A DNA stretch of 64,000 nt from Bacillota bacterium. Lineage in GTDB: Bacteria; Bacillota; Sulfobacillia; JAJZYS01; JAJYTV01. Under the pieces are notes generated by a model. The model did not search any database. It saw only the letters and a list, made by a program, of their open reading frames with translations, and was not told the origin of the DNA. A program made the translations under genes and the position numbers. The stretch covers positions 9,708 through 73,707 of the forward strand of contig JAJZAT010000003.1 of NCBI GenBank assembly GCA_021799275.1. Direction: 5' to 3'. Below, in pieces: positions 4,157-28,261 of this stretch. Within the stretch, counting starts at the first letter, position 1. Every line of letters begins with the position of its first letter.

Positions 4157-5890
4157 CTAGGCGCTCTGTACCTGCGAGAGGATCCAGGCGCTCGCGTAAT
4201 GCTGGATGGCGGCCTCACCGGCACCGAGTTCCGCCTCGAGCGCCGCCACCTGACTCAGGATGGCCGGCGCCGCCGCGCCACCCGGTTCGACGTCGAGGGC
4301 GCGCTGAAACTGGTCGAGTGCGGCGATCGGTACCCCGAGGCGCAGCAGGGCGTAAGCCCTCTGCAAGTAAACGAGCAGACGGTTGGGCGGCACGGCAGGA
4401 TACCCGAACGACTCGTCTCCCGCGGCGACCGCGACCTCGCGCAGAGCCCTCTGCGCCAGCGCGCCGTAGAGCGATTCGTAGGCGCCCGTCGCCTTCTGGA
4501 TCGTGAAGAAGCTCAAGGCGCGCTCGCGCGCGGCCGCACCCAGCCGCTGCCGCAACTCTTCGTCCTGCAGGAGGATGATCATCGCCACCGCGAGCCGTTC
4601 CGGCTCGCGTGACGGCACCGTGATGCCGGTGTCGGCGAGGGCCTCGGCCGTGCCGCCGACGTCGGTGGCCACGATGGGCAGACCGCTCATCATGCCTTCG
4701 ATCACGGAGTACGGGAATGCCTCCGACACGCTCGACTGCACGAGGATGTCGGCCTGGCGGTAGAGCTCCGCCGCGTTCTGCGAGTGGCCCTGGAACAGGA
4801 CGACATCGTCGAGTCCCAACGCGTGGCGCAGTTCCAGCATCTGCTGGTGGTAGTCCTCCACCGCGACGGCCCCCCACACCTCGAGCTTGATGTCGGGGAA
4901 GTGGCCGTGCACGATCGCCATGGCCCGCAGCAGCGTCTCGATGTCCTTGTTCGGGTCGATGCGCGCGATGCTGAGGAGGCGCGGCGGACCGCCGTGCGAC
5001 TCCGGGTTCGGCGCGAAGACCTGCGGGGACACGCCGTTGTAGACGACGTCGATGCGCTCCTGTGGGGCGCCGAGGAGACGCTCCCAACGGGCGTTGAAGG
5101 CGCACACCGGGGTGATGCGATCCGCGAAGTGCAGGTTCGCCCGCACGATCGTGCGCACCGCGGCCAGGAGAAACCGCTTCGAGAAGCGGCTCATGTTGCT
5201 GCGTCCGACCGAGAGGTACTGCTCGCGCAGGTAGACGCCGTGCTCGGTCAGGAGGTAGGGCGTGCCGTACTCCACCTTGGCGACAATGCCCGCCATGCCG
5301 CAGAATGCGGCCGCGGACGAGTGCACGACGTCGACCTCCGGGATGGGCGTGTTGAGCACGGTGAAGAAGTGGTAGATCCAACCGAGCGCCTGGACCGCCT
5401 CGAACACGCTGGGCTCGGTCCAGGAGCCGGTCTCCGCAGCGTCGTGCAGGAAGTCTCGGAACGCCCGCCAGACGACTTCGGACTTGAACGTCTCGCGGTA
5501 GTCGAAGACCTGGAAGTGCCGGTGCATCGCCGCCAGGGCGTAGCCGACCGCCTCGGGGTCGTCGCCGCTCCGCCGCATCTGCTCGAGGAACGTCATCAGC
5601 TCGGGCAGGAAGCCTCTCGAGACCTCGTCGACCGTCGTGCGCTGCTTCTGCAGGAAGATCTCCGAGAACGGCATCTGCTCCTTGTGCTCGGACGGGTCCT
5701 GGGTACCCCAGAGCGGGATCGTGACCACCTGCCGCACGCTCTCAGGGAACTCGAAACGGCTGCGCACGAAGGGGTTCATGGCCACGGCGAAGACGGTGAA
5801 CTCCGCATCGCCCACCAGTTTGACCAGCGTGTCGCACCACGTGCTCACGCCGCCCAGATGATAGGGATAGGTGCCCTCGGTCGCGAGCAT
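4157..5890 (-). CDS. pelF: PelF-type glycosyltransferase (N-terminal DUF3492 + GT4/Glycos_transf_1) with ~90-aa C-terminal helical/TPR-like extension
   Basis: Start MLATEGTYPYHLGGVSTWCDTLV matches the DUF3492 signature that precedes the GT4 domain in PelF. The GT4 C-terminal part carries an E-x7-E-like region. ATG 5888-5890 has an AGGAAAG SD. The tracker ORF is over-extended by 62 codons. Confidence 0.7.
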   Translation of the reverse strand: MLATEGTYPYHLGGVSTWCDTLVKLVGDAEFTVFAVAMNPFVRSRFEFPESVRQVVTIPLWGTQDPSEHKEQMPFSEIFLQKQRTTVDEVSRGFLPELMTFLEQMRRSGDDPEAVGYALAAMHRHFQVFDYRETFKSEVVWRAFRDFLHDAAETGSWTEPSVFEAVQALGWIYHFFTVLNTPIPEVDVVHSSAAAFCGMAGIVAKVEYGTPYLLTEHGVYLREQYLSVGRSNMSRFSKRFLLAAVRTIVRANLHFADRITPVCAFNARWERLLGAPQERIDVVYNGVSPQVFAPNPESHGGPPRLLSIARIDPNKDIETLLRAMAIVHGHFPDIKLEVWGAVAVEDYHQQMLELRHALGLDDVVLFQGHSQNAAELYRQADILVQSSVSEAFPYSVIEGMMSGLPIVATDVGGTAEALADTGITVPSREPERLAVAMIILLQDEELRQRLGAAARERALSFFTIQKATGAYESLYGALAQRALREVAVAAGDESFGYPAVPPNRLLVYLQRAYALLRLGVPIAALDQFQRALDVEPGGAAAPAILSQVAALEAELGAGEAAIQHYASAWILSQVQSA

Positions 5891-5943
5891 GACCCGCACT
5901 TTCCTGGGCACTATCCATCCCCCTTTGTCGCACATCCGAAACC

Positions 5944-6047
5944 TTTGCCGCATCGAGACCCGTTGCAACTTGAAGTTTGGCACACAAAAACGAAGGCATT
6001 TTGCCCGTGTATGTCGTAGTTTGCCATGGTTATCCCGCATTTGGCAA
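5944..6047. promoter_or_regulatory. candidate operator array: four TTTGCC/TTGGCAA half-sites (5944, 6000, 6020, 6041) spaced ~20-21 bp in the divergent pelF / membrane-operon promoter region
   Basis: The AT-richer island between divergent starts 5890 (-) and 6082 (+) carries the repeated hexamer with helical-turn phasing. The last pair forms the inverted repeat TTGCCA-N15-TGGCAA. Confidence 0.3.
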
Positions 6048-6081
6048 TGCCGAGGGACAATCGCCAGGGGAGTCACCCGAG

Positions 6082-7689
6082 ATGAGCATCGCCAGGGGAG
6101 GTCGGGCCACCCGCACGTCCCGGACGGGTGAGGCCCGCGAGCGCCTCCTTCGCCAGGTGGTCGAGGCCAACGGCGACCTGCAGGATGTCATGGACGTGGC
6201 CGCCACGATCGAGTCGCTCGGCTGGAGCGACCGTCGCGTGGAGGACGTGTTCGGCATGCCCAGCGTGTTCGATCTCGCCGAGGACATCTACGCCGACTTC
6301 CTCGCCAGCGTCCGTACGGACCCGATACCGCCGCGCCACGATATGCGCTGGTACCATCTGCTGCGTCTCATCGCGGCCGACTTCTTCCACGGTCTTCTCT
6401 TCGCCCTGCCGATGGTCGTCTCGATCGCTGCGATGGTGATGCTGCACATCAGCATCTGGTCCTACCAGTACTACTCCGTCGCGCAGGCCACGGCGCTCGG
6501 CATCGCGACGTTCCTGAGTTTCGTCGTGACGGGCGGATTCACGCAGGCCATGGCCACGATCTATTACGTCCTGGTCGGCCTGCAGGAGGGGGACCTCGTC
6601 GAGCGCTCCCTCTACCAGATCATGCGCTGGGGCTTCGGCGCCGCCGTCGTGATCGCGATCGCCATCGTCGTCGCGGACTCGGTGTTCCCGATGTTCCCCT
6701 TCTCCCTGGCCTTCTTCATGGTCGTCTACATGATCATGCTGTCGCTGCTTTGGCTCGCGTACGCCAGCCTTTACGTTCTGCGGCGAGAGTACATGCTGAC
6801 CCTGCTGACGGTTGGCTCCATCCTGATCGCCTACTTCATGTGGCGCTTCGGACACAACGTCATCCTGGCGCAGGCGATGGCCATGGCCGCGGCGACCGGC
6901 GGGGCCGTGCTCTCCTGGCTCGTCATCTTCCGCCGCCAGACCCGCAAGTGGCAACACATCGGCCGCATCGTCAAGACCAGGACCTCGCAGCTCGCCTATG
7001 CCTCGGCGAGCTACTTCTTCTACGGCATCCTCTACTTCAGCTTTGTGTTCTCGGACCGCCTGGTCGCCTGGACCACGGCCACGTCGTTCCTGCCGTACAG
7101 CATCTGGTTCCGCGGGGAGTACGAGCTCGGCATGGACTGGGCGCTCTTCGCCCTCATCCTGCCGCTCGGCGCGACCGAGGCGTTCGTCGGCTATGTCATC
7201 CGCTGGCTGATGGTCGCGCAGCACCGCGTCACGGAGCGGAACGTGCAGAACCTGGCTGCCGCGATGCGCGCCGTCTACCTGCGCTGCGTGGCCGGCTTCG
7301 TCGGCGTCGCGGCGATCGGCATGGTCATGGTGCGCATCGGCCTCGCGATCGCCCGCCAGTACCCGATCCTGCGCAACGCGATCCCGATCCACGGCGTCGA
7401 GCCGTTCGTCTTCTCCTGGGCGAGTTTCGCCTACGTCGTCCTGGCGCTCGCGCTCTTCAACGTCCTCCTGATGTTCAGCCTCGCCTACCCCCAGCTGGCC
7501 CTCAGGTCGCTGCTCATCTCCCTTGCGGCCGACATCACGGTCGGCATCATCGCCACGCGTATTCTCGGCGCGTACCAGTTCGCCGTGGTCGGCCTCATCG
7601 CCGGCGTCATCTGCCTGGTCGTGCTGACCACGGTGGACGTGCTCCGGCTGCTGCCGCGCGTCGACTTCATGCTCTACCGCATGGCCTGA
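6082..7689 (+). CDS. 12-TM integral membrane protein, PelG-like / MOP-type putative exopolysaccharide exporter
   Basis: Twelve or so hydrophobic helices follow an ~90-aa cytoplasmic N-terminus. The N-terminal pattern W-Y-H-L-L-R-L-I-A-A-D-F-F-H-G-L-L-F-A is reminiscent of the PelG N-terminus. Divergently adjacent to pelF. ATG 6082 with GGGGAG SD. The function call is tentative. Confidence 0.55.
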   Translation: MSIARGGRATRTSRTGEARERLLRQVVEANGDLQDVMDVAATIESLGWSDRRVEDVFGMPSVFDLAEDIYADFLASVRTDPIPPRHDMRWYHLLRLIAADFFHGLLFALPMVVSIAAMVMLHISIWSYQYYSVAQATALGIATFLSFVVTGGFTQAMATIYYVLVGLQEGDLVERSLYQIMRWGFGAAVVIAIAIVVADSVFPMFPFSLAFFMVVYMIMLSLLWLAYASLYVLRREYMLTLLTVGSILIAYFMWRFGHNVILAQAMAMAAATGGAVLSWLVIFRRQTRKWQHIGRIVKTRTSQLAYASASYFFYGILYFSFVFSDRLVAWTTATSFLPYSIWFRGEYELGMDWALFALILPLGATEAFVGYVIRWLMVAQHRVTERNVQNLAAAMRAVYLRCVAGFVGVAAIGMVMVRIGLAIARQYPILRNAIPIHGVEPFVFSWASFAYVVLALALFNVLLMFSLAYPQLALRSLLISLAADITVGIIATRILGAYQFAVVGLIAGVICLVVLTTVDVLRLLPRVDFMLYRMA

Positions 7690-11679: not shown

Positions 11680-13634
11680 TGGCCGGCGCCGTGGCAACCG
11701 CCCTGCAGGTGACGATCGGCGTCCTGGTGGCGGTCCTGCTGCTGCCCTATCTGCTGGTGCGCCGCGACCACGGCCTCCGTCCCTTCGCGGCCCTCTGGCG
11801 CACGCTTGCGCTTGGCACGGCGGCATGGACGTCCCTCGGCTTCCTGCTGGCCGCTGCCTCCAGCGTGGAACTGGCCACCATCGGTCTCATCATCGCCTTC
11901 GCGGTCGGCCTCGCGGCCTACATGCGCCGCCGTCGCGGCAGCCTTGCGGTCCAGACCCAGCGCCGCAACCAGCAGACGGCGAAGCTGCTGGACGCCATGG
12001 ACCCCGAAGGCGAGCATTCCTTCCTCTCCCTGGCCGCCGACGCCATGCGCCAGCTTGGGGCATGGCTCGGCAGGGTCGGGCGCTCCTTCATCCAGGCCGA
12101 CGTGCTGCTCACTTGCCTCGCCCTCGCCGTGATCGCGGCGCGCCAGTTCGCCCCGCTTCTGGCGCAGGCCGCCCCGGGCACGCCAGCAGGCTATGTGCAG
12201 TTGCTCGCCACCAAAGACATCGCCTTGAACCTCGGCCTCTACCAGTCGGGCGTCTACCCGTTCGGCGTGCCGGTCCTGGCGGCGCTCGTCGCGACCACCT
12301 TCTTCTTCGACCCGCTCAACGTGCTGCGTTTCCTCGGGCCCCTCGTGGCCCTCCTCCTGCCGCTGGCCGGCGGCTTCCTGGCCATGGAGATCGCGGACAG
12401 CGGCTGGGCCGTCTTCGCCACCGTGGTGCTGATCGGCTTCTCCTTCTTCCCCGCGATCGGCCCAGGCTCCGTGACCACCTGGCATCCGCTCGCGCTGCAC
12501 TTCGCGGCCATCTTCGTCCTGGCCGAGCTGGGCTTCAGCCTGCGCGCCCTGCGTCGCGACTCGCCGACCGACGCCGCGCTCGCGGGCGTCGCGGGCTTCG
12601 TCGCCGTCATGGCGCAGCCCCTGGCCTGGCCCTACGCCGTCGGCAGCGCCATCCTGATCTGCCTGCCATGGCTGCGCGGCCACCGCATGGCGCTGCGGCT
12701 CATCGGCCGCATCCTGCTCGGCAGCCTGGTCGGACTCGTACCGGTGGCCATCGGCCTCGTGGGCCACCATGCCATCAACACGCTCCTCATGGCGCCGCAA
12801 GCCCTGCCGAGCCAGCCCGTGCCAACCTGGCTCTCCGGCTGGAGCGGCCTGGCGCTGCTACTGTTGGCCGGCGCCATGGTGACGGTCGCCGCGCTCATGC
12901 GCTGGCAGTCGCTGGGGAACGACGCGCCGCTCTACTTGGGCATCGGCCTTCTGCTGGCCTGCCTCGGTGTCGTCGGTGCCCTGCCGCTGCAGGGTGTCTG
13001 GCGGACTCCCCTAGCCCTTGGCGACTTCCTCGGACTCCTGGCCGTACCCCTCGTCGTCGGCTACGCCTTCTCGCTCGTGGCGAATCGCCTATCCTATCCT
13101 TCGGCCGCCCATGGCCTGGCCGCCCTGGCACTCGCCGCCTGCCTCGCGGTGGGGATTCTACCGCCGCAGCCTTTGGCGCGCTATGAGGTGCCCGGCTCGG
13201 AGGAGGTGCTGCAGCAGATCTCCGGCTCGTTCGAGGCGTACCAGTGGACCGTCATCTCGCCCACGGAGCAGTACAGCGAACTCCTGGGCAAAGGTTGGCA
13301 TGTGGAGCTGACGCAGTTCCTCTCGAAACTGCCGCTCTCGGTCGCGCGGGACGCCAGGATCAAGCCCTACGCCTGGCCGCATCTGGCCATTTTGACGTCG
13401 GACACGTTCCTCTACGTGCCCCGTGTCACCGCCGACGGCGTGCGGCCGACGGCCGGCGATCTGAAGCTCCCCGTGCCGCAGTCGCTGCAGGCCGCCGAGA
13501 ACGTGGGCCCGGCAGGCGCCGTGCTCGATGCGCACGCCTACGCCTGGGCCATGGCCTACCATCATGCCCATCCGGCGACATCGAGCATCTATTACCGCAA
13601 GCCGGACCTTCTGGTGCTCTGGATCCGTCAGTGA
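11679..13634 (+). CDS. large polytopic membrane protein, distant paralog C (651 aa)
   Basis: ATG overlaps the TGA of paralog B (ATGA coupling at 11678-11681). Same size and architecture. The C-terminus retains a Y-Y-R-K-P-D-L-L-V motif comparable to YFRGPDLTVYEL of A and B. Confidence 0.7.
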   Translation: MAGAVATALQVTIGVLVAVLLLPYLLVRRDHGLRPFAALWRTLALGTAAWTSLGFLLAAASSVELATIGLIIAFAVGLAAYMRRRRGSLAVQTQRRNQQTAKLLDAMDPEGEHSFLSLAADAMRQLGAWLGRVGRSFIQADVLLTCLALAVIAARQFAPLLAQAAPGTPAGYVQLLATKDIALNLGLYQSGVYPFGVPVLAALVATTFFFDPLNVLRFLGPLVALLLPLAGGFLAMEIADSGWAVFATVVLIGFSFFPAIGPGSVTTWHPLALHFAAIFVLAELGFSLRALRRDSPTDAALAGVAGFVAVMAQPLAWPYAVGSAILICLPWLRGHRMALRLIGRILLGSLVGLVPVAIGLVGHHAINTLLMAPQALPSQPVPTWLSGWSGLALLLLAGAMVTVAALMRWQSLGNDAPLYLGIGLLLACLGVVGALPLQGVWRTPLALGDFLGLLAVPLVVGYAFSLVANRLSYPSAAHGLAALALAACLAVGILPPQPLARYEVPGSEEVLQQISGSFEAYQWTVISPTEQYSELLGKGWHVELTQFLSKLPLSVARDARIKPYAWPHLAILTSDTFLYVPRVTADGVRPTAGDLKLPVPQSLQAAENVGPAGAVLDAHAYAWAMAYHHAHPATSSIYYRKPDLLVLWIRQ

Positions 13635-14506
13635 CCGGCCGGAACCAGCCTATCGCCGCTGAACGCCCAGGTCTCGAGCGGCTGCCGGGCAAGGTCCGGA
13701 ACCTGGGGGCCCATCGGCACGAACGTCACCTGGCGCAGGAGGTCCCCGAGCAGCCGCCGCAGGTGGCCGCGGCCGAAGCCCATGCTGAAACGGGCCACGG
13801 CCCCGGCGGAGGCCGGTAGCGACCAGCCCGCCGGGGCCACTTCCCACGGATGGGCGTAGAGTACCCGCGGCGCGCCGCCTCTGAGCGCGGCGACCACCAG
13901 GGCCGACGGCAGGAGACGCCAGTAGATGCCCCCCGCGACCGGCACGCGCAGGCCGAACCAGGACTGCACCGCCGGCGGCAGCTCCAGGATCGAGCCGGAA
14001 CCGGCCTGGGCCTGCAGTCGGTAGGGTGACGCAGGGGCGCCGGCCACGCCGTAGAGCGGCGTGCGCAGCGGAAAGACGCTCGAGTCGTAGCGAAAGCCGA
14101 GATCGGAGAGGGCCTCGACCGCCCAGGCGCTGCGCGGGGTGAGCGACCAGGTGGCCGCCCGGTAGCCCTGGACGCCGGTGCCCGCAAGGTCCTCGAGGAT
14201 CGCCTTGGCGTCCTTGACCTCGCGGCGGAAGCGTTCCTCCCCGATCTGCCAGAGGAGGTCGTGCGTAAGGCCGTGGCAGGCTACCTCGTGTCCGGCCGCC
14301 GCGATCGCCCGGACGCTTTCGGGCAGTTCGCGGGCCAGGCCGCCGAGCACGAAGAACGTCGCCCTCGCGCCATGCGCGGCCAGGAGCCCCAAGACCGCGT
14401 CGAGCTCCCGGCGCGCGAAGTCGGGCTGTGGGGCGACGGGCGCCGTTGCCAGCGTGGCGTCGTACCAGTGCTCGACATCGATCGAGAGCATGTGTGGCCC
14501 TACCAT
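13628..14506 (-). CDS. polysaccharide deacetylase family protein (CE4/PuuE-like fold with C-terminal DUF3473)
   Basis: N-terminus MLSIDVEHWYD resembles the TIGR03006/DUF3473 deacetylase subfamily (SVDVEDYF). Has the His pair ACHGLTHD. The 3' end overlaps paralog C convergently by 7 nt. Start M125 of the tracker ORF, with an AGGTGA SD. Confidence 0.7.
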   Translation of the reverse strand: MVGPHMLSIDVEHWYDATLATAPVAPQPDFARRELDAVLGLLAAHGARATFFVLGGLARELPESVRAIAAAGHEVACHGLTHDLLWQIGEERFRREVKDAKAILEDLAGTGVQGYRAATWSLTPRSAWAVEALSDLGFRYDSSVFPLRTPLYGVAGAPASPYRLQAQAGSGSILELPPAVQSWFGLRVPVAGGIYWRLLPSALVVAALRGGAPRVLYAHPWEVAPAGWSLPASAGAVARFSMGFGRGHLRRLLGDLLRQVTFVPMGPQVPDLARQPLETWAFSGDRLVPAGH

Positions 14507-15630
14507 CGCATCACCTGCCGCCATGTCCCGATATCGAAGAGGTGGCCCAGCACGGCGAGCAGGAAGCCCCCGACGGGCCCGAGGTCGCCCGGGTCGACGA
14601 TGTCGTCCACCAGCCGCTCGCCGGGCAGGCGCCTCGGCGCACCCTTGGCGAGACCACGCAGCGGGTGGCGCAGGAGATGCAGGAGGTCCGACGGCAGAGA
14701 CCAGCGGCAAAGCACTGCGGTATCGTAGGCTGCCGGCCCGCTCACGGTCTGTCCGAGCGCAAGTTCCGCCCAAAGCCGGGGGAAGTCCACCCCCGCCGCC
14801 ACCGCGAGCCCCAGGGACGCCCAGGGCCTCGGGTTGATCTCCAGAAGCTGTGGTGAGCCGTCGGGTGCTTCGAGCCATTCCACCTCGGCGAGTCCCGTCC
14901 AGCCGATCGGCTGCAGCAGCTGGCGCGACAGCCCGACAAGATCGTCCCGCACCACGCTGCGCTGCAGGGTGCTCGTGCCGTGCTCCCCTGGGAACCAGCG
15001 CAGCTCCTCCTGGCAGAACGTGGCCCTAAGACTCCCATCCCTGGCGTAAAGGAGGCCCACGTCGAACTTGCGTCCGCGCGGCAGGCGCCGCTGCACGAGA
15101 TGCCCTCGGAGGTCCGCGGGCAGGGCTTCGAGATGCTGCGGCAGATAGCGCACGCCGCGTCCCCCGGAACCCACGCGGGGCCGCAGCACGACTTCCCCCC
15201 CGAGCATGGCCCTGGCGTCGGCTAAGTCCCCTTCCGTCCCGACCGGAACGCTCTCGGGATGGGGTACGCCGGCCCGGACGGCGAGTTCCATCGTGCGCCA
15301 CTTGTCGCGGCCAATCTCGAACTGCTCCGCCGTCGGCAGGAGGCTCTTCGCCGTCAGCGCGTCGCCGCAGGCGATCGCGGCCGCGGTGGAGAGGTCGTCC
15401 ATCGGCAGCACGAGATCCACCTCTGCCGCGACGGCGAGAAGCCAGTCCTGGAATGCGGCACTCCCCGGTCGCGGGCTCCTCAGGGCCCGGCCGGCGTATC
15501 GGGACCACCGTGCGAGGCTGAACGTCGTATCGTCGGCGACCCACGGCTCATAGCCCGCCCGGCCCAGAGAGCGTGCGGCCACGAGCGTCTTGCGCTGCAG
15601 TCCATCGGTGAGGAGCACCCTCACCTTCAT
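14500..15630 (-). CDS. ATP-grasp domain protein (carboxylate-amine ligase-like)
   Basis: ATP-grasp central and C-terminal motifs (VLRPRVGSGGRGV..., LLEINPRP). Overlaps the deacetylase start by 7 nt and the GT2 gene by 4 nt, so the three are translationally coupled. Confidence 0.65.
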   Translation of the reverse strand: MKVRVLLTDGLQRKTLVAARSLGRAGYEPWVADDTTFSLARWSRYAGRALRSPRPGSAAFQDWLLAVAAEVDLVLPMDDLSTAAAIACGDALTAKSLLPTAEQFEIGRDKWRTMELAVRAGVPHPESVPVGTEGDLADARAMLGGEVVLRPRVGSGGRGVRYLPQHLEALPADLRGHLVQRRLPRGRKFDVGLLYARDGSLRATFCQEELRWFPGEHGTSTLQRSVVRDDLVGLSRQLLQPIGWTGLAEVEWLEAPDGSPQLLEINPRPWASLGLAVAAGVDFPRLWAELALGQTVSGPAAYDTAVLCRWSLPSDLLHLLRHPLRGLAKGAPRRLPGERLVDDIVDPGDLGPVGGFLLAVLGHLFDIGTWRQVMRW

Positions 15631-16406
15631 ACAGGGGCGGCCCGGCGCATGATCTCAGGCAGGCAGGTCACCTCGTAGGAATCCTCCGGCGGCCTGCGCC
15701 GGCGCAGGCCGAACGTGACGCGCAGGAAGGCGATCAGGCCCATGGACATGTTGTTCAACCCGTCCCGGATCCGAGCCCCCTTGCGGTAGAACGCCACCCT
15801 CGTCGGCATGGTGTTGTCCATCTTCCAGCCGCGCCGAACCGGCAGGATGCCCAGTTCTTGCGCGCAGCCGTAATTTCGTCCGGTGAAGTACGGCATGATG
15901 TCAGCGATGACCTTGAGGCGCATGAGGCGGAAGCCGCACTCGATGTCCCGGAACATGTAACCCGTCAAGAGGCTGGCCCAGAGCGAGAGGCCCCAGTTGC
16001 CGATGCGCTTGCTGAGCGGGTAACCGGAGAGGTCCCTTTGGCCGAGCAGCACGTCCGCGCCACGCTCCTCGATGCTCCGTACGGCGGGCCCCGCCTCTTC
16101 CGGGATATGCTGGCCGTCGGCGTCCATCGTGATGACGATGTCCTCGGCCCCCAGAACGCCGAGGCGCATCAGGCCGAGCAGATAGTCGAATCCGGTCCGC
16201 AAGGCGCCAGACATGCCGCGGTTCGCCGGATGCGTCAGGAGCGCCACCTTGCCATGCGTCTGGCACCAGGTGCGCACCAATCTGCTCGAGGTGTCGCGCG
16301 AACCGTCGTCGACAACGACCAGGAGATCCGCGAACGGCTCCGCCCGGTGAAGCACGTCCACGATGGTGCGCTCCTCGTTGTAGGTAGGGATCAGAAACAC
16401 GACCAT
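15627..16406 (-). CDS. glycosyltransferase family 2 (Dpm1/polyprenyl-phosphate sugar transferase-like)
   Basis: VVFLIPTYNEE..I..VL, VVVDDGSRD and DADGQH motifs typical of GT2 DXD enzymes. Confidence 0.8.
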   Translation of the reverse strand: MVVFLIPTYNEERTIVDVLHRAEPFADLLVVVDDGSRDTSSRLVRTWCQTHGKVALLTHPANRGMSGALRTGFDYLLGLMRLGVLGAEDIVITMDADGQHIPEEAGPAVRSIEERGADVLLGQRDLSGYPLSKRIGNWGLSLWASLLTGYMFRDIECGFRLMRLKVIADIMPYFTGRNYGCAQELGILPVRRGWKMDNTMPTRVAFYRKGARIRDGLNNMSMGLIAFLRVTFGLRRRRPPEDSYEVTCLPEIMRRAAPV

Positions 16407-16488
16407 ACGTTACCTCTGCGGGCAACTCCGCCCGCTTTACTTAACCTTGGCGACGAATTACGCCAAAATTGGACAAATTCCTCCGTCC

Positions 16489-17286
16489 TCAGCGCCCCAG
16501 CGCGACGCGGCCATCCACCGTGCGGACGCCGCGGGCGTAGTCGAGGGGCGCGGCATAGGAAAGAAAGCCGTAGCGCTTCGACAGGTCGTCCAGTACGCGC
16601 AAGCGCGGGGCCGCCGCCGCATCGTCCGGGATCTCGCTCAAAAGCATCGGCGTGATGCCTTCCTGGCGCACCACCTTGGCGATCTGCTCCAGAACCATCC
16701 GCAGCCAAGGCCCTGTCGTCTCGTCCGGATCGAAGCTGCCCTCCCAGCAGACGCCGTCGATCAGCTGGGCGACGAGCGGTAGCAGCAGGAAAATGCCATT
16801 GTTCTGCAGCAGCAGCCGGTCGCCAACGGCCTGGCGCACGCCGCGCACGAGATCGGCCGCGGCGGGCAGCAGCCAGCCTGACCTGTCCTGGACGAGCTGA
16901 TCCTCGACGTCGCCGAGGTTGTCGAGAAAGACGCCGTCCCAACCCTCGCCGACCAGGCGGCTCGCCTCCCGCAGCACGTGCTCGCGCCAGGGGCGCGCGC
17001 GAGGGTCGACGACGTAGGTGTCGAACTGCTCGCGCCGCCAGGGACCCTCTCCCGCGCGCAGCAGCTGGCGTTCTGCGACGCCGATGCGGTTCAAGGTCGC
17101 CCGCGTCGCCTCCATGGCGGAGAGATAGGCGATGCAGCGCACGCCATGGCTTCTAAGGGCCTGGACATCCTCGCGCCGCCACCCGGCGGGCTCCAGGATG
17201 GCGATGTCGTACGACGAGATCTCCGGCAGCGGACCGTATCCGTAATACACGACAAACGTGCGGCCTCGCAGTCGGGGTGCGCGCAC
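16489..17286 (-). CDS. GH114-like glycoside hydrolase (TIM barrel; PelA-hydrolase/Ega3-like endo-alpha-1,4-polygalactosaminidase family)
   Basis: Motifs VVYYG, CIAYLSAME and DGVFLDNLGDV resemble the GH114 conserved blocks (vicYfSaG..., DGvFLDnvD). No signal peptide is evident, so the call is moderate. Confidence 0.55.
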   Translation of the reverse strand: MRAPRLRGRTFVVYYGYGPLPEISSYDIAILEPAGWRREDVQALRSHGVRCIAYLSAMEATRATLNRIGVAERQLLRAGEGPWRREQFDTYVVDPRARPWREHVLREASRLVGEGWDGVFLDNLGDVEDQLVQDRSGWLLPAAADLVRGVRQAVGDRLLLQNNGIFLLLPLVAQLIDGVCWEGSFDPDETTGPWLRMVLEQIAKVVRQEGITPMLLSEIPDDAAAAPRLRVLDDLSKRYGFLSYAAPLDYARGVRTVDGRVALGR

Positions 17287-17313
17287 ATCGTGCCCTCCTT
17301 TGACGTCTCCTGG

Positions 17314-18924
17314 CTAGGCGCCCTGTTCGATGGGCAGGATGCCGCGATCGGCGAAGATCTCGATCAAGGCCCCCACCATATCGGGATCGAGCTGGCTGCC
17401 GGCGATGAGCTGCATCTCCCTGAGCGCCCTGGCGGGCGGCAGAGCCGCGCGGTACGTGCGGGCGGAGGTGCGCGCGACGTAGACCTCGGCGCACGCCACG
17501 ATGCGGGCGAAGAGATCGATGTCGGTGCCCGCGAGGCCGTCCGGGTAGCCCTGGCCGTCCCAGCGCTCGTGGTGATGGCGCACCGCGAGCACGACGCCTG
17601 CCGGCACGACGTCCCCGGGCAGCCCCGACAGCAGGTTCGCGCCGACGACGGGATGCTGCTGGATGACCGTGCGGCTCTCGGCGCTCAGGCCGCCCCTGGT
17701 CTTCGGCAGGTCTAGGGCGACCGACACCATGCCGACGTCATGCAGCCGTCCGGCGAGGTGGAGCGCCTCGACCTGCGACGACTCGAGCCTCAGCCGCCTG
17801 CCGATGTCGCGCGCCACCTCCGCGACGCGCTTCGAATGGTCGTGGCTGAGGTCCTCCGCCGCGTCGAGCAGATCGGCCGCCGACAGCAGCGACTGAAGGT
17901 AGCTCTGGCCGAGACTGAACGTGTAGAGATGGCTGCCGATCGTACGCCGCAGGCTCTGCGAAAGGGAGGTCAGCACGAAGGTCACGCGCTCGCTCAGCTC
18001 GGGGCGGATCGCGAGGCCGTAACCCACCGCGCCGCCTCGCGTGTCCTCGCGCACGGACACGAGCGCGAAACCCTGGTAGCCGAGCTGGGCGACGCCGTCC
18101 GGCAGGTCCGGCGCGACCCAGAGCCCCGCCCGCAGACTGGGCAGACGCCGCGGGTCGAGGGCGAAAAACAGCTGTTCCCCGCCACCCATCCGCCAGATGT
18201 CCTCGACGACATCGTCATGCCAGGCGACGCAGTAGCCGGCCCCCGCCTCGATCGCCTCGCCGCCGAGGCGCGCGACCAGGCCAAGGAGCTTGTCCGACTG
18301 CAACGTGAACTCCGACGCCAGCTGCTTCGTGGTGCTCTCCACGGCGACGCGCTCGCCTTCCGCGGTCGTGTCGTCGAGCGCGAGCAGGACCTGCAGCATC
18401 GGCTCAAGCCGAGCGCCGTAGGAAAGGAGGAGCTTGCGCTCGGGCTCCGCCACGTGCTGGCGGCGCGCCAGCGCTGCGCGCAACAGGACGCGCGGCCCCA
18501 CGCCGAGCGACAGGTACGGGTCACCCTGCGGCCCATCCTCCTGGCAGGTCAGGCCGGCGCGGCCAGGCGGCAGTTCGAGCGGCGCCTGCCGGATCGGCGC
18601 ACCGGCGACCAGTCCGGCGTAGTTGATGCCTACCTGCGGCGTGCCTGTCTCCGCACGGGTCAGGCGCAACTGCAGCGGCGCGCCTTCGGCCGGCGCGACA
18701 TAGGCGTAGTAGCCGTCGGCGGGCAGGAGGTCCGCCAGCCCTACAAGCGCGTAGAGAAGGATTTCCGCCACGTCGTAGGGCGGTGCCACCTTGGCGCGCA
18801 GTGCGTCCCACACCTCGTCCACGGTGGCCCTGCGCCCGCGAGGTCGGCTGAAGAGGCTTGCGCCGGCGAGCGCGGCATAGGAAAGCCACTGGGCGTGCAA
18901 CAGTCCATCAACTCCAACGCTCAA
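17314..18924 (-). CDS. HD-GYP domain c-di-GMP phosphodiesterase with ~330-aa N-terminal uncharacterised sensory domain
   Basis: HD motif (LSHDHSKRVA, HDVG) and the canonical HHERWDGQGYP signature. ATGA overlap with the upstream membrane-protein gene. Confidence 0.8.
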   Translation of the reverse strand: MSVGVDGLLHAQWLSYAALAGASLFSRPRGRRATVDEVWDALRAKVAPPYDVAEILLYALVGLADLLPADGYYAYVAPAEGAPLQLRLTRAETGTPQVGINYAGLVAGAPIRQAPLELPPGRAGLTCQEDGPQGDPYLSLGVGPRVLLRAALARRQHVAEPERKLLLSYGARLEPMLQVLLALDDTTAEGERVAVESTTKQLASEFTLQSDKLLGLVARLGGEAIEAGAGYCVAWHDDVVEDIWRMGGGEQLFFALDPRRLPSLRAGLWVAPDLPDGVAQLGYQGFALVSVREDTRGGAVGYGLAIRPELSERVTFVLTSLSQSLRRTIGSHLYTFSLGQSYLQSLLSAADLLDAAEDLSHDHSKRVAEVARDIGRRLRLESSQVEALHLAGRLHDVGMVSVALDLPKTRGGLSAESRTVIQQHPVVGANLLSGLPGDVVPAGVVLAVRHHHERWDGQGYPDGLAGTDIDLFARIVACAEVYVARTSARTYRAALPPARALREMQLIAGSQLDPDMVGALIEIFADRGILPIEQGA

Positions 18925-20120
18925 TTCGCCAAGGCCCCCGACGATTCCCTACCTTGGCGGCCGGATGCGGCGGAGCGCAGGCCGAGGGCAATAACCGCGC
19001 CGGCGCCGACCAGCTGGGCCAGAACGTAGCCGAGGATCAGCGAGTCGGGGCCGCCCGCCAAGGTGAGGCTCCATGCCACCCAGGCAACGCAGGTGGCCAG
19101 GATCGGCCACCAGTTGTGCAGCGAGCGCTGCGCGTCGGCGCCGCTCCAGAGATAGCTGGCGGCAAGGGCGCAGGTGCCGAGGAAATAGAGCGCCAGGACC
19201 CAGCCCGGCTCCCTGACGCCCATCAGCCGCATGGCGAACTCGCCGATCGCGAAGGCGATCATCACGCTGACGACCGCGATGATCCCGATGGCGAGACTGC
19301 CCTCGCTGCGTCGCGAGCGGCCCCAGCCCTCGTCACCGACCGCCATCAGCACCAGGGGCTGGGCTAGGTAGAAGGGAGCCTTCCCGAGCAGGGCGATCAC
19401 CGCGAAGCCCGCCGCGCGCGCCGCACCGAGATGCAGCGTCGCCGCCAGCACGTCGACGGACAGCCAGGCGGTCACCGCGAGCGCGACCCAGCCGGACGCC
19501 CAGGGCGTCGCCTTGATCGGGCGGATCGCCGCCTGATCTCGGGTCCTGTACGGCAGCAAGACCCCGACGGCGCCGAGCACAAGGAAGCTCAGCACCTGGA
19601 TCCAGAGTACGGCAAGGCCGCCGCCCGACCGGTGTCCCACCGCGAGGATGCCGACAAAGCGGCCGACGTTCGGCAGCATGTTGACGACCGCCGACCCGAC
19701 GAACGACGCGCGTCCGATCAGCACGCCCGTCGCCACGGCCGGCATGTAGCTCGAGAGCGGCACGAGCAGCGCGACCGGCAGCACCCATGTACCGGGAAAG
19801 CGGCCGGCGAACAGGAGCATCGCCATGCCGCTCAAGAGACCGGCAACGAGAAACGCCACCTGGACGAAGGGCAGGTGGCGGCGCCACTTCGGTGACAGGC
19901 CGGCCCACGTCGCCACGGGCAGGCTGATGAGCGCCGCGGGCAGGCCGATGGTCGATCCGGCGCCCAAGGCCGCCAGAACCTGCGCCAGGACCTGCGGTCC
20001 GTAGAAGATGTCGATCAGCAGGTTGAAGCCGTACGAGACGACGCCGGACAGCAGCGATACGGCGAAGATGATCAGCGTGGTGCGGCTCACGATCGGACGC
20101 GATGCGGTGCCATGCCTCAC
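18921..20120 (-). CDS. polytopic membrane protein (~12 TM, 399 aa), possibly Wzx/MOP-like polysaccharide flippase or polymerase
   Basis: Uniformly hydrophobic with ≥10 predicted helices. Embedded in the EPS operon and translationally coupled on both sides. The function is inferred from context only. Confidence 0.5.
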   Translation of the reverse strand: MRHGTASRPIVSRTTLIIFAVSLLSGVVSYGFNLLIDIFYGPQVLAQVLAALGAGSTIGLPAALISLPVATWAGLSPKWRRHLPFVQVAFLVAGLLSGMAMLLFAGRFPGTWVLPVALLVPLSSYMPAVATGVLIGRASFVGSAVVNMLPNVGRFVGILAVGHRSGGGLAVLWIQVLSFLVLGAVGVLLPYRTRDQAAIRPIKATPWASGWVALAVTAWLSVDVLAATLHLGAARAAGFAVIALLGKAPFYLAQPLVLMAVGDEGWGRSRRSEGSLAIGIIAVVSVMIAFAIGEFAMRLMGVREPGWVLALYFLGTCALAASYLWSGADAQRSLHNWWPILATCVAWVAWSLTLAGGPDSLILGYVLAQLVGAGAVIALGLRSAASGRQGRESSGALAN

Positions 20121-22252
20121 TGGCCGTCCTCCGGCAGGGTCATGTAGACGATCATCTCCGGCAAGAGCCCCATGGCCTCCACCTCGGCGACCAGCTCGGG
20201 CGTGATGCGGGTGCCCTGGGCGGCGACGAGACGGCCCTCCTGGCCCACGAGGTCGCGCCCGACGACCTTGCCGGCGATGAATGCCAGGATGTTCAGCCCC
20301 GATGCTCCCGCCACCACCTTGGGTTCGGCGGCGGCCGCGGCGGGCCGCTGCCTTGGACGCGACGGAGGGGTTTGCGGCCTTGGCGCCTGCGGTCTCGCCG
20401 GCTCGGTCCTAGGCGTCTGTGGCCCACGCGGGGGTTGCCCCACCTGCAGCGGCGCAGACCCTGCGTCGCCGCTCTCGCCCGGCAGCTGCCAAGCGGGCCG
20501 CGGAAGCTCCTCCGGCCAGAGCGCCTCAGCGACCGTCTCAGCCTTCCCCGCGGCCGGCGCTTCCTCGGAATGCGGCTCAAGACTCGTCTTCGCTTGGTTC
20601 ACGGGCGGCTGCTCCTCACGCGCGACCGATGGGGGTGGTGCCAGGGGCAGATCTCCGCCGCCTCCCGGATGCGCTGCCGGTTGGCCCTGTACGGCCATCC
20701 CCGGGCTGTCGCCCGCCGGACGGGAACTGGCTGCAACGGACTCCTCCGGCGCCGTGCCGTCCTCGGGGCCGATCTCGCCAGGAACTGAACCTGAGGCGGT
20801 CGGCTCAGGCGTCGCCTCGGCGGCGTCGTGGCCCGCACGGTCGAGGCCGGGCTCTTCAGCCGCATGGGCGGAGGACAGCGGCGCGGCCTGCCCGTCCTCG
20901 GAGCTCGCGGCACAGTCCGGAGCGATCGCCAAAGGCGGCGCTTCGGGCGCCTCCGGCTCCTGCGACGTGGGGGGCTCCGAAAACCCAGCCGCGAAGGGCA
21001 GGTCGTCCGCCTGGGGCTCGGCCAGCGGCGCATCCCGCAGATCGCCAGCCTCGTGCGAATCTTCGGCCTGCGATGGGCCATCGGGCTCGTCCTGCGGCTG
21101 GGGGAGTCCGGCGGTGGCAGGCATGGGCGGCTGGTCGGCCGTCTCGACAGCCTGGGGCTCCTCAGCCGGCGCGTCCCCAGCCGGCGCGGAGGTCCCCGGA
21201 AGCGCAGGATCCACCGCTTCGTAGTTGTTCTCTGCGCCTGACTCCGGGGGCTGGCTTCCCTCTGCCTGGGGCGGCACCACCCGCAGGATCTCGCCACGCG
21301 GCGCGTCCCCTGGCGCATTGCTCGCGGGGAGGCTGCCCTCCGCATCGGGCAGGTCGGCCCACTCCGCCGCCGCGGTCTCGTCCGCAGCGTTCCCAGGCAG
21401 GATCTCCTTCTCGTCATGCGTCTGGGACTTCGGCGGCAGCGCAACCGAAAACAGCACCCGGGTAGACTCCTCAGGTACCTCCTCGACGGCGAGCAGGCGA
21501 TACTTGTCGCGCAAGAGCACCATGCCCTGGCGCAAAGCCACCACGTCGCCTGCCGGGATCACCCCGGACCCTTCCTCGCTCTCCGCCACAAACCCCAGCA
21601 CCCGCGGCGGCGGTCCGCTCACCACCACGCCAGTCAGGTAGCCGAACGGGGCACCTCCCCGTACCTGCAGCCGGACGGCGCGCTCGGGCAGCAGGAACAG
21701 GGTGCGCTCGCCCGAGAGCCGCCGAACGGGTAGGTCCCCGGGCGGCTGCGCGAGCAGCGCAGCAGCGACGTCGGCGAATTCGGTCGAGGTCCCGAGGGCG
21801 TCGTCGATGGCCCCCCCCACCACCCGTTCGATTCCCGCGGCCAGCCTGCGCAGTTCCTGCTCCGCGACGGAGATGGCCCGGTCGACCTCCGGCAGGAACC
21901 CCTCGAGCCGCGCGCGTTCCTGCTTGTGCAAAGTTTCAAGATGGGAAACTTCCTCGCGCACGCCGGTGTCTATGACCGCAGCGTTCCCGCGGGCCAGTTC
22001 GAGCTGGTGGGACAGGCGCTCGCGATCGAGGCGCAGGCGCCGCAAGAGATCCTCAAGCGCGTCCCGCCGCGCCAGGGTACGAATGATGCGCTCGCGCTGG
22101 TCCGCCTCGACCACCGCGAAGGCCTCGCTCGCCCCCTGCTGCTCCGCCTCCATGCGCGTAGCCAGTTCGAGCACGTCGGCGCGGTTAAAACCAAACAGGC
22201 CCAGCGGCAGCCGCTGGACCCTGAACCGTGGTCGAGAACCCCTTGACGCCAC
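20117..22252 (-). CDS. DivIVA domain-containing protein with ~450-aa acidic Pro/Ala/Glu-rich disordered linker and conserved C-terminal domain
   Basis: N-terminus FRVQRLPLGLFGFNRADVLELATRMEAE resembles the DivIVA N-terminal domain (F.....RGY...EV..FL), followed by coiled-coil. The central region is low-complexity (PEAPEAPP, APAGDAPAEEP...). The C-terminal ~70 aa are conserved-looking. Confidence 0.6.
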   Translation of the reverse strand: MASRGSRPRFRVQRLPLGLFGFNRADVLELATRMEAEQQGASEAFAVVEADQRERIIRTLARRDALEDLLRRLRLDRERLSHQLELARGNAAVIDTGVREEVSHLETLHKQERARLEGFLPEVDRAISVAEQELRRLAAGIERVVGGAIDDALGTSTEFADVAAALLAQPPGDLPVRRLSGERTLFLLPERAVRLQVRGGAPFGYLTGVVVSGPPPRVLGFVAESEEGSGVIPAGDVVALRQGMVLLRDKYRLLAVEEVPEESTRVLFSVALPPKSQTHDEKEILPGNAADETAAAEWADLPDAEGSLPASNAPGDAPRGEILRVVPPQAEGSQPPESGAENNYEAVDPALPGTSAPAGDAPAEEPQAVETADQPPMPATAGLPQPQDEPDGPSQAEDSHEAGDLRDAPLAEPQADDLPFAAGFSEPPTSQEPEAPEAPPLAIAPDCAASSEDGQAAPLSSAHAAEEPGLDRAGHDAAEATPEPTASGSVPGEIGPEDGTAPEESVAASSRPAGDSPGMAVQGQPAAHPGGGGDLPLAPPPSVAREEQPPVNQAKTSLEPHSEEAPAAGKAETVAEALWPEELPRPAWQLPGESGDAGSAPLQVGQPPRGPQTPRTEPARPQAPRPQTPPSRPRQRPAAAAAEPKVVAGASGLNILAFIAGKVVGRDLVGQEGRLVAAQGTRITPELVAEVEAMGLLPEMIVYMTLPEDGQ

Positions 22253-22254
22253 GC

Positions 22255-22809
22255 CTAAGCCCCTGCCTTCTCCTGACGTGTCGCCTCTTCCCCGGTCTGT
22301 TCGGGCAAAGGCGCCGTCGCCGGCGCTGCCTCACGTTCCGCCTGCCCCGGTTCCTCCGCGACAGGCAAGGTCTCGATCTGCGTCAACGCGCGCCGCACCG
22401 CGGCAGCCACGTCGTCCCGCAGGACGTGGAGCATCTGCCGCCGATGCGCGAGCGCAAGTTCCCGGCGCGCGATCTCGCCAAGGAGCGCCGCCTCCTCTTC
22501 ACCGAAGGCGGCCTTGGCGCTTTGGAGCATCTGCATGCCGCGCGCGCCGAGTTCGTCGAGAAGAGCCAGTAGGATCTGCCGCTGCTCTTGCTCGGCGGCA
22601 ACGAGCGCCTCCGCGTCGCGCAGCGCCTGCGCGGCCGCGTTGAACTGGTTCGACAGCTCCGTCAGTTGCCGCTCCCGTGCCTCCTGCGCCGCCAGAGCCT
22701 CACGTTCGAGCGTCTCGAACAAGGCGAACGTGGGACGCCTGCGGTAGCCTATAAGAGCCCTCCGCAACGCAAGTTCCACGTTTCCAACACCTCTTCGCTG
22801 ACGCTTCAT
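22255..22809 (-). CDS. hypothetical coiled-coil protein (184 aa)
   Basis: Start MKRQRRGVGNVELALRRAL, with heptad-like E/A/L/R/Q-rich sequence. The tracker ORF is over-extended into an AT-richer promoter region. Immediately upstream of the DivIVA-domain gene. Confidence 0.45.
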   Translation of the reverse strand: MKRQRRGVGNVELALRRALIGYRRRPTFALFETLEREALAAQEARERQLTELSNQFNAAAQALRDAEALVAAEQEQRQILLALLDELGARGMQMLQSAKAAFGEEEAALLGEIARRELALAHRRQMLHVLRDDVAAAVRRALTQIETLPVAEEPGQAEREAAPATAPLPEQTGEEATRQEKAGA

Positions 22810-23209
22810 GGCGATAAAGCAGATCGCCCAATGACCATACGGCGATTTGCCTGCGTTGATTCTACTCCATCCGTCAAGTTCCTGCAGCACTTTCCTCGCA
22901 TGGCAGACCCGCCGGCGTGCCGCCACCACTGCCTGCGCCAGCCATTTGCATCCGTCCGTCCCGCCGATGCGCCCCGGCGATGAAATAGACCGACTGGTCC
23001 CAGGCGTCCTGACGATACGAGGCGGGCAACGTCAAGCCAGAACCGCCCACGGATTCGCCATGGCCCGGAACACGACCCCCAACAGATAGCGGGCCGCGGC
23101 GTCCAGCCCGAGCGGCAGCATGTTCCGCATGACCCGCTGGCGGTGTGCAGACGGCGCAGCCCAAGTCTCTGGGATCGCAGACGAGGAGAGCGTTGTCGCT
23201 CGTCACGCG

Positions 23210-25005: not shown

Positions 25006-25007
25006 GC

Positions 25008-25553
25008 TCACCCCTCCCCTCCCGCCGGTTCCGCCGCCAGCATGCCGCGCAGACGGATCAGGGCACGATACTGCAGCGCACGCACCGCTTCGGGCGAGCG
25101 TCCGAGCTCGCGACCGGCCTCCGCCGCGCTCTGGCCCTCGAGCAGCCGGAGTTCCAGCACCCTGCGCTGGTCCGGCTCGAGCGCGCCGAGCGCCGCCTTG
25201 AGCCGCTCGGCCTCCTCGCTCGCGAGCAGATGCTGCTCGGCGGAGGGACCCGGGTCCGCTCGCCGCTCCTCGGTGAGCTCCACCGCAGGATGGCGGTGGC
25301 TGTCCCGCAGCCTGTTGCGGCAAAGGTTCAAGGCGACCGTGCGCAGGTAAGGCCCGAGGCGTTCACCCTCGAACCGATCGATTTGGCGCCAGAAGCGCAG
25401 GAACGTCTCCTGTGTCAGATCCTCGGCCTCCGCGCGGTTGCCGAGGCGACGATAGACGACGCGGTACACCGCCTGCCAGTGCAGGCGGCACAGTTCCGCG
25501 GCCGCATCGCGAGCGCCGGCCTTCGCACGGCGGATCAGGTCGCCTTCCTCCAT
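25008..25553 (-). CDS. RNA polymerase ECF-type sigma-70 factor
   Basis: Region 2 motif (DLTQETFLRFW) and region 4 helix-turn-helix (EGQSAAEAGRELGRSPEAVRALQYRALIRLR). Confidence 0.85.
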   Translation of the reverse strand: MEEGDLIRRAKAGARDAAAELCRLHWQAVYRVVYRRLGNRAEAEDLTQETFLRFWRQIDRFEGERLGPYLRTVALNLCRNRLRDSHRHPAVELTEERRADPGPSAEQHLLASEEAERLKAALGALEPDQRRVLELRLLEGQSAAEAGRELGRSPEAVRALQYRALIRLRGMLAAEPAGGEG

Positions 25554-28245: not shown

Positions 28246-28261
28246 TACCCTTGCGCGATCC

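Follow-up and report, generated by a model that had tools for sequence, protein, structure and literature searches.

What is the role of an HD-GYP protein that is encoded within an exopolysaccharide (EPS) operon in which PelD, the cyclic di-GMP (c-di-GMP) receptor of Pel systems, is missing? This question is raised by a 64,000-nucleotide stretch of DNA from a Bacillota bacterium of the Sulfobacillia lineage (assembly GCA_021799275.1, contig JAJZAT010000003.1, positions 9,708 to 73,707), which is referred to below as the window. The original prediction, made from the sequence of the window alone, had placed an HD-GYP gene inside an EPS operon. This was borne out, and the operon contains both pelF and a gene encoding a PelA-hydrolase-like protein. 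We consider it somewhat more probable than its negation that the HD-GYP gene encodes a soluble, GAF-gated c-di-GMP phosphodiesterase or trigger enzyme of the binuclear HD-GYP type, which would be dedicated to the polymer system of this locus and would act, together with the hydrolase, as a brake on it.

The dedication to the polymer system is supported by the gene order. In 15 of the 17 loci of the family the HD-GYP gene is located directly upstream of a gene encoding a PelA hydrolase-like (PelA_H-like) protein, and the GC content of these loci ranges from 0.40 to 0.70. The 15 loci comprise the window, the nine loci L001–L009, and the loci of the proteins P0036, P0049, P0034, P0043 and P0055. 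The order is retained down to approximately 25% protein identity, and the stop and start codons of the two genes often overlap. No adjoining hydrolase gene is found in the loci of P0045 and of P0062, the latter being the weakest match and not located in an EPS context. The loci L001–L009 carry the full-length relatives from reference genomes, all of which are Bacillota or Sulfobacillus metagenome-assembled genomes from hot springs and acid mine drainage. A homolog of the 265-aa GH114-like gene of the window follows the HD-GYP gene in all nine of them. A GT2 glycosyltransferase gene comes next in six, ATP-grasp and deacetylase matches are found in four, PelF in seven (L002–L004 and L006–L009), and a membrane protein of the type encoded at 5977 in the window in eight; the types encoded at 9700 and 11556 are present in most. 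The genes for the GT2, the ATP-grasp enzyme, the DUF3473-containing deacetylase and the large membrane proteins recur where the flank is sufficient (L001, L002, L009, L081, L087 and L091), while several loci of the close clade, to which the window protein belongs, show no ATP-grasp or deacetylase match within the flank read. In the locus of P0036 the order is GT2, ATP-grasp, DUF3473-deacetylase, MurJ-like, HD-GYP and a 281-aa PelA-like gene. The order GT2, DUF2304, HD-GYP, GH114 is found for P0049, and the locus of P0034 is similar. Directly upstream of the HD-GYP gene, and on the same strand, lies the 11556-type gene in L002 and L009. The association that is conserved for the HD-GYP gene is the one with the GT2/ATP-grasp/deacetylase/PelA_H-like module.

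The open reading frame (ORF) at 17314..18924 of the reverse strand was confirmed. It encodes 536 aa from a TTG start codon at 18924, and its GC content at the three codon positions (0.76/0.48/0.88) is the pattern of a real gene in a window of about 69% GC. A second TTG codon at 18900, eight codons further in, is a probable alternative start; it would lead to a protein of 528 aa and matches the start in most homologs. The start of the gene overlaps the stop codon of the upstream membrane-protein gene (TTGA). The next gene, encoding the PelA-hydrolase-like protein, starts 27 nt downstream of the HD-GYP stop codon behind the ribosome-binding site AAAGGAGGG. No terminator-like site was found between the HD-GYP gene and its operon neighbours, and the gene lies in a co-directional string together with the GH114/PelA-like, GT2, ATP-grasp and polysaccharide deacetylase genes. 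The exact protein is absent from a collection of 15 billion proteins, the nearest entry being 97% identical, and no public name for the GAF-GAF-HD-GYP family was encountered in any source checked.

The profile of the partner family matches the hydrolase domains of PelA (9cgy, E 2.6e-20; 5tcb, E 1.2e-19). The protein encoded in the window reaches 23.3 bits against the Pfam family GH114, which is below the threshold of 27 bits. Eight of the PelA_H-like proteins were aligned (from the window, L002, L004, L008, L081, L083, L089 and L091). They keep the acidic motifs FLD, E128 and CWE, and none of the eight has a signal peptide or a transmembrane (TM) segment. For this reason the PelA_H-like protein appears to be cytoplasmic, as judged from these sequences. 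The characterised PelA is periplasmic, and PelA_H of Bacillus cereus is extracellular.

The C-terminal part of the product of the HD-GYP gene is readily recognised. Residues 350–515 match Pfam HD_5 (PF13487) with E=8.9e-34 and 117 bits against a cutoff of 27.2. The profile matches in the PDB are V-cGAP3, PmGH, PA4781 and DvhD, and the best Foldseek match for the whole model is PmGH, a GAF-HD-GYP protein. The active-site residues were aligned against PmGH, PA4781 and V-cGAP3, and their conservation was counted in 33 sequences of the close clade. All ligands of a binuclear metal centre are present (H363, H395, D396, H424, H451, H452 and E480, for which the reference set in PmGH is H189, H221, D222, H250, H276, H277 and D305), and they are invariant in 33 of 33 members. 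Within the GYP motif the same holds for E453, G457, G459, Y460 and P461; position 456 is an aspartate in 31 of the 33. The presence of Glu480 instead of an aspartate was considered as a mark of inactivity and rejected, as glutamate occupies this position in 44 of 71 related HD-GYP domains. In PmGH, E185 is the ligand of a third metal ion, and the trinuclear subclass of HD-GYP enzymes makes GMP. The residue corresponding to E185 is L359 in the window protein and L, F, Y or H across the clade. The lack of an E185 equivalent points to the binuclear HD-GYP subclass. The motif R489-x-Y491-R492, R489-T-Y491-R492 in the window protein, is also invariant in 33 of 33 sequences. RxY[K/R] has been described as the motif for specificity towards c-di-GMP rather than cyclic GMP-AMP (cGAMP) (Galperin & Chou).

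The N-terminal part of the protein was less obvious, as residues 1–340 gave no match in Pfam or NCBIfam. The original prediction had described it as a novel domain that might be GAF/PAS-like. The guess at GAF was correct and the novelty was not: the region is a sequence-divergent tandem GAF and not a new fold. The N-terminal modules show the predicted GAF fold, a six-stranded antiparallel sheet against helices. Among the distant relatives, P0036 and P0062 have sub-threshold GAF_3 matches on the first module (E 2e-5 and 2e-4, respectively), and a faint precomputed GAF_2 match exists for P0043. When residues 1–341 were used as the sole query, only 14 clusters were retrieved among 5.8 billion, all of them of about 500–580 aa and all ending in HD_5. 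A profile built from the sequences of these clusters retrieved 53 proteins from 1.84 billion representatives, of which about 22 are close (500–545 aa) and about 30 distant (570–640 aa). All ten distant members that were scanned end in HD_5. The N-terminal module is rare, and no output domain other than HD-GYP was seen in the members scanned. Its most conserved stretch, and the most conserved of the protein outside the active site, is a loop of GAF-A with the pattern [GA]Y-x-x-Y … P-x-Y-[AS]-G-L … P-[LI], which is retained in both the close and the distant clade (Table 1). Residues 95–116 of this loop are a candidate site for a ligand or a partner. Residues 1–30 were considered as a membrane anchor, and this was rejected for the clade of the window protein (Kyte-Doolittle maxima of about 1.0–1.5). 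The combination of GAF with HD-GYP, double-GAF forms included, is a recognised architecture (Galperin & Chou 2021).

The absence of PelD, which had also been claimed, was supported by the profile searches. No match to the PelD_GGDEF, GGDEF, PilZ or PelG profiles was obtained in the ORFs scanned between 227 and 31644, and the motif GG[DE]EF is absent from all frames of the 64-kb window and from the flanks of the close-clade loci. Neither the locus nor the window yielded a PelD-like protein or one with a GGDEF or PilZ domain, and no linked diguanylate cyclase or PilZ receptor was seen in the close-clade flanks. A PAS-GGDEF gene is located 2.5 kb from the HD-GYP gene in one locus of the distant clade. 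The label of a Pel-type locus was only partly justified: PelF and a PelA-type hydrolase are present, but PelG, PelE and a PelA-type deacetylase are not recognisable in the locus of the window. The locus is a Pel-related hybrid and not a canonical pel operon.

The distant members form a sister clade that differs from the window protein in several respects. Most of them have a clear N-terminal TM helix, which is absent from the window protein. Nearly all carry a C-terminal domain of about 70 aa with 7–9 cysteines, which the window protein also lacks. The pattern of this tail is CWE…C…CP…CWE…C…HG…C…C.VYTE (P0034–P0064, e.g. L081:10001-11893 and L091:10001-11890). The label 'two-CW' was considered for it and rejected, as it is matched by neither Pfam nor NCBIfam, and the tail is described here by its pattern only. 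The cysteines could belong to a metal or Fe-S redox sensor.

On the basis of these observations, the following mechanism is proposed. The product of the HD-GYP gene would be a soluble, probably dimeric one-component c-di-GMP signalling protein in which long helices connect GAF-A and GAF-B with an HD-GYP domain of the binuclear type. Its gene would be a dedicated and co-inherited part of a Pel-related cell-surface polymer cluster of Sulfobacillus-related and other Bacillota, and the protein would be translated from the same operon as the cytoplasmic PelA-hydrolase-like enzyme. A cytoplasmic ligand or partner may act on the conserved loop of GAF-A. The signal would then pass down the helical stalk and gate the binding and hydrolysis of c-di-GMP, probably to pGpG, at the HD-GYP site. 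In this way the protein would lower the concentration of c-di-GMP locally, or report its level, at the synthesis machinery. Together the HD-GYP protein and the hydrolase might restrain polymer output, as a brake or checkpoint, in a locus without a PelD-type receptor. A hyper-biofilm phenotype results in B. cereus when either PelA_H or the phosphodiesterase CdgE is lost (PMC7112168). The composition of the domains, the conservation of residues, the position in the operon and the deep synteny are observed here; gating by a ligand, c-di-GMP as the substrate, the direction of the regulation and a physical coupling to the hydrolase are inferred.

Several findings weigh against this proposal, the first of which concern the second shell of the active site. 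The original prediction had deduced likely activity from the canonical HHERWDGQGYP motif. The metal ligands and the GYP motif are indeed intact, but the deduction was too strong. In PmGH, mutations of the GYP motif barely change the activity, whereas D183A, K225A and D308A cut it about as much as mutations of the metal ligands do; D308 hydrogen-bonds R192 and the ligand H189 (Bellini et al., PMC4159591). K225 is replaced by Met399 in 33 of 33 close-clade members. D308 corresponds to Val483, and Val, Ile, Leu or Met occupies this position in 33 of 33 sequences of the clade, in contrast to Asp in 68 of 71 background domains. Its partner R192 is relaxed to R or Q in the close clade. With M399 and V483 the second shell is altered, so that real turnover is not assured. 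The replacement of D183 by E357 in the window protein is acceptable. Selection clearly acts on the metal centre, but activity is not readable from the GYP motif alone.

Further points of this kind come from the GAF modules, the sister clade and the gene content. The most conserved part of the GAF-A loop (aa 95–110) is modelled at low confidence, and no GAF ligand can be named from sequence. No c-di-GMP receptor or diguanylate cyclase was found in the locus, which leaves the target of a change in c-di-GMP unnamed. The metal ligands have been lost together in 11–14 of the 29 sister members (HD to SN in 11, the H189 equivalent to Y in 10, the D305 equivalent to Q in 11), while these degenerate members retain HHExxDGxGYP and RxYR. 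The three degenerate members that were looked up, P0043, P0045 and P0055, all lie in the same polymer cluster. As the members without metal ligands stay in the cluster, the conserved role of the family is not hydrolysis alone. The conserved feature may rather be nucleotide sensing within the cluster, and not necessarily hydrolysis.

These points lead to the alternative that survives best, which we regard as possible, though on the doubtful side. According to it, the protein binds c-di-GMP with slow or no turnover and stands in for PelD; nucleotide binding would move the stalk and the GAF modules and so switch a partner, either the PelA_H-like enzyme, PelF or the membrane proteins. The replacement of the residues essential in PmGH by Met and Val is in agreement with such a receptor, as is the position of L310, which in PmGH makes a hydrophobic contact to c-di-GMP and which is Arg485 in the window protein and Arg or Lys family-wide. 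The degenerate sister orthologs, which keep the GYP and RxYR motifs and the genomic context, also fit, and a precedent is known in DvhD, where the HD-GYP domain is a pure, non-catalytic c-di-GMP receptor that acts through movement of the stalk helices (PMC13090378). However, all seven metal ligands are invariant in the clade of the window protein, while the sister clade illustrates their rapid drift after they become dispensable. The invariance argues that the metal centre, and probably the chemistry, is retained in the window's clade. Met399 is also no proof of inactivity, since HD-x-G-M is carried by 69 of the 71 background loci, which belong to other phyla; this background was retrieved with the pattern LHD[VLI]GM and is biased, so that it has no bearing on the overall rarity of Met399. 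The variant, with Met for the canonical Lys, is widespread in Gemmatimonadota, Melainabacteria/Gastranaerophilales, Acidobacteriota and others (L010–L080). No biochemical characterisation of it was found in the literature consulted.

It is improbable that the protein acts on another nucleotide (3′3′-cGAMP, pGpG or another cyclic or linear dinucleotide) and that the locus is not under c-di-GMP control. Some HD-GYP proteins hydrolyse cGAMP, and the best sequence match in the PDB is the cGAMP-specific V-cGAP3. As V-cGAP3 contains two HD-GYP domains, its score is, however, inflated; its best single domain reaches 118 bits, which is similar to the 111 bits of PmGH. V483 and R485 are located near the base-binding helix and could shift the specificity, but the RxYR motif is of the c-di-GMP type, while cGAMP-shifted enzymes carry RxxQ or RxxN. 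The lack of GGDEF genes in the window and the close-clade flanks would also agree with another nucleotide; the PAS-GGDEF gene near the HD-GYP gene in the sister-clade locus speaks against it. The explanation that an ordinary global phosphodiesterase has been placed in the polymer operon incidentally, as many genomes carry numerous scattered HD-GYP genes and P0062 lies outside an EPS context, is very improbable in view of the deeply conserved order of the HD-GYP and PelA_H-like genes and of an N-terminal module that has no other output domain in any member scanned.

The GAF-gated phosphodiesterase or trigger enzyme thus remains the reading that we favour for the window protein. For the family as a whole we tentatively put forward a wider proposition, which we hold to be rather unlikely: the family would provide an undescribed polymer pathway, widely scattered in Bacillota, with a built-in subunit for c-di-GMP sensing and would do the job of PelD with an HD-GYP domain. 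This pathway would comprise the GT2, the ATP-grasp enzyme, the DUF3473-deacetylase, the large membrane proteins and the cytoplasmic PelA-like hydrolase, and in one clade PelF. In the same proposition, the protein would be a trigger enzyme in the clade of the window and a pure receptor in the degenerate sister clade, and it may control the co-translated cytoplasmic hydrolase directly. The suggestion of the original prediction that the locus follows a different regulatory logic without PelD is plausible, and it is strengthened by the catalytically degenerate orthologs in the same cluster.

Table 1. Positions of the genes and protein modules of the window, and of the DUF2304 genes of related loci.
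Feature	Position	Strand	Remarks
GalE-like NAD-dependent sugar epimerase	1459..2400	+	
PelF (DUF3492 + GT4)	4157..6076	-	639 aa; NCBIfam NF038011, 153 bits (cutoff 100); PF11997, E=1.4e-41
Membrane protein with about 10–12 TM segments	5977..7689	+	divergent from pelF; conserved wherever the flank of a family locus was sufficient
Three large multi-pass membrane proteins	7701-9656, 9700-11679, 11556-13634	+	C-terminal soluble domains
Polysaccharide deacetylase (Polysacc_deac_1 + DUF3473)	13628..14878	-	XrtA-associated type; longest ORF
ATP-grasp enzyme	14500..15630	-	
GT2 glycosyltransferase	15627..16406	-	weak best NCBIfam resemblance to polyprenyl-phosphate sugar synthases
PelA-hydrolase-like (GH114-like) TIM-barrel protein	16489..17286	-	265 aa; no signal peptide
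GAF-GAF-HD-GYP gene	17314..18924	-	536 aa (TTG 18924) or 528 aa (TTG 18900)
HD-GYP domain, aa 350–515	17380..17877	-	Pfam HD_5 match
HHERWDGQGYP motif, aa 451–461	17542..17574	-	
Stalk (signalling) helix into the HD-GYP domain, aa 312–356	17857..17991	-	by analogy to PmGH alpha5 and the DvhD stalk helices
GAF-B module, about aa 225–305	18010..18252	-	W244 and W269 invariant in the close clade
Long helix connecting GAF-A and GAF-B, aa 160–224	18253..18447	-	
GAF-A module, about aa 35–155	18460..18822	-	PYD (49–51), GYYAY (71–75), NYAGLV (101–106), PL (115–116)
Multi-pass membrane protein directly upstream of the HD-GYP gene	18921..20120	-	homolog found only in L001
711-aa protein	20117..22252	-	coiled-coil N-terminus; Pro/Glu/Ala-rich low-complexity middle of about 350 residues; conserved C-terminal domain
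Coiled-coil protein encoded first in the gene string	22255..22929	-	224 aa
DUF2304 genes	L083:1926-2330, L087:7108-7461, L089:3639-4028, L091:9640-10014		

The remaining genes of the cluster are only partly covered by known families. The four large membrane proteins encoded between 5977 and 13634 gave no meaningful Pfam or NCBIfam match, and a PDB search with the products of 5977-7689 and 9700-11679 returned only chance-level hits. For the product of 5977-7689, no match to PelG or any other profile was obtained even at E<=10; a PelG-like role is possible for it. The products of 7701-9656 and 9700-11679 are paralogs with C-terminal soluble domains of about 200 aa. All four are core components of the polymer cluster, conserved in the related loci with enough flank, and a GT-C-like or PelG-like role for the membrane proteins is a guess. 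The PelF of the window has about 60 extra N-terminal residues and a C-terminal extension of about 100 residues with a weak TPR_9 match (aa 562–610). This TPR-like extension might substitute for PelE, which contains TPR repeats. PelF was not seen within the flanks read for the sister-clade loci. The longest ORF of the deacetylase overlaps the ATP-grasp gene, and its homologs have 281–312 aa; its true start is probably located further in.

Upstream of the HD-GYP gene, the homolog of the 711-aa protein in L081 has a faint PRC-barrel match. The gene of L081 in the position matching 22255..22929 has a weak DivIVA match, while tblastn with the window protein from this position found nothing in L081. 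The two coiled-coil proteins encoded at 20117-22929 may be a localisation scaffold for the machinery. Compared with L002 and L009, the segment of about 13600-22950, which runs from the DivIVA-like genes to the deacetylase and contains the HD-GYP gene, has the opposite orientation. The two operons of the window converge, with an overlap of a few bases at 13628-13634. Sister-clade loci encode a small membrane protein with DUF2304 between the GT2 and the HD-GYP gene (Table 1). The best NCBIfam match of the GT2 of the window, far below the threshold, is the polyprenyl-phospho-GalNAc synthase PpgS. The mycobacterial PpgS works with a DUF2304 partner. The pair of GT2 and DUF2304 would suggest a lipid-linked amino-sugar donor for extracytoplasmic transferases. 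The flanks of the cluster encode an ECF sigma factor, closely followed by an ORF for a possible anti-sigma factor, a beta-eliminating lyase, LexA, arginine deiminase, a prepilin peptidase (A24) and a lytic transglycosylase (jointly 23977-25553 (-), 26191-29089 (+), 30409-31644 (+), 3395-4120 (-) and 227-1384 (+)). The ECF pair directly precedes the polymer operon and could control its transcription.

Comparison with known systems helps to place the protein. PmGH from Persephonella marina (PDB 4MCW/4MDZ) likewise consists of GAF, a long helix and HD-GYP, and it shares the His and Asp metal ligands, the GYP motif and RxY[K/R]. In contrast to PmGH, the window protein has two GAF modules, both too divergent for Pfam, is of the binuclear type with K225, D308 and L310 changed to Met, Val and Arg, and is found in obligate linkage with a polymer cluster; no such linkage is reported for PmGH. 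PelD is a membrane-anchored protein with a GAF and a degenerate GGDEF domain and serves as the c-di-GMP receptor of Pel systems in both Gram-negative and Gram-positive bacteria. The nucleotide domain of the window protein is HD-GYP and not a GGDEF I-site, without homology between the two; the protein is moreover soluble and keeps its metal ligands, and a takeover of the role of PelD by it is our inference only. DvhD from Desulfovibrio vulgaris (dCache-PAS-degenerate HD-GYP; PDB 9RBZ/9RC0) matches in sequence and structure and resembles the degenerate sister members. Unlike the window protein, it has lost HD and HH, contains PAS and dCache instead of GAF-GAF and controls an adhesin protease.

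Two GAF modules and long helices upstream of a nucleotide-turnover domain are also found in the GAF-A/GAF-B tandems of PDE2/5/6 and of the cyanobacterial CyaB adenylyl cyclases. PDE2A (1mc0) aligns over 255 residues of the window protein at a sequence identity of about 10%, and no signature for binding of cyclic nucleotide monophosphates was identified in the GAF modules of the window protein. Ligand-gated phosphodiesterase activity is established for Tlr0485, a cAMP-gated GAF-HD-GYP protein (Galperin & Chou 2021). The Pel system of B. cereus (pelDEADAFG with PelA_H, the phosphodiesterase CdgE and the diguanylate cyclase CdgF; PMC7112168) is Gram-positive as well, and it shares PelF, a GalE-like epimerase and a hydrolase of the PelA_H type that is a protein of its own. 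The set of PelF and the GalE-like epimerase in the window matches the accessory genes reported for pel loci of Gram-positive bacteria (PMC7112168). In B. cereus, CdgE is encoded outside the operon and PelD is the receptor (PMC7112168), whereas in the window the HD-GYP gene lies within the operon beside a hydrolase without a signal peptide, and no PelD, PelE, PelG or PelA_DA can be recognised.

GAF-regulated HD-GYP regulators and c-di-GMP enzymes encoded beside EPS genes are known already, and to find one of the former in such a neighbourhood would not, by itself, surprise a specialist. What is new is a rare, unnamed subfamily with tandem divergent GAF modules and a distinctive second shell of the active site. 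Also new is its near-obligate and deep linkage to a PelA-like cytoplasmic hydrolase and to a partly uncharacterised polymer cluster without PelD, which holds at least four conserved membrane proteins without a recognisable family. The third new aspect is a sister clade that has turned catalytically degenerate in place. With equipped and degenerate forms, the family shows the same spectrum from enzyme to receptor as the GGDEF and EAL domains. Its hosts are Sulfobacillus-type acidophiles and thermophiles, for which attachment to minerals matters in bioleaching. The family described here is a concrete and testable candidate for the coupling of c-di-GMP to matrix polysaccharide in Gram-positive bacteria without PelD or a conventional receptor.

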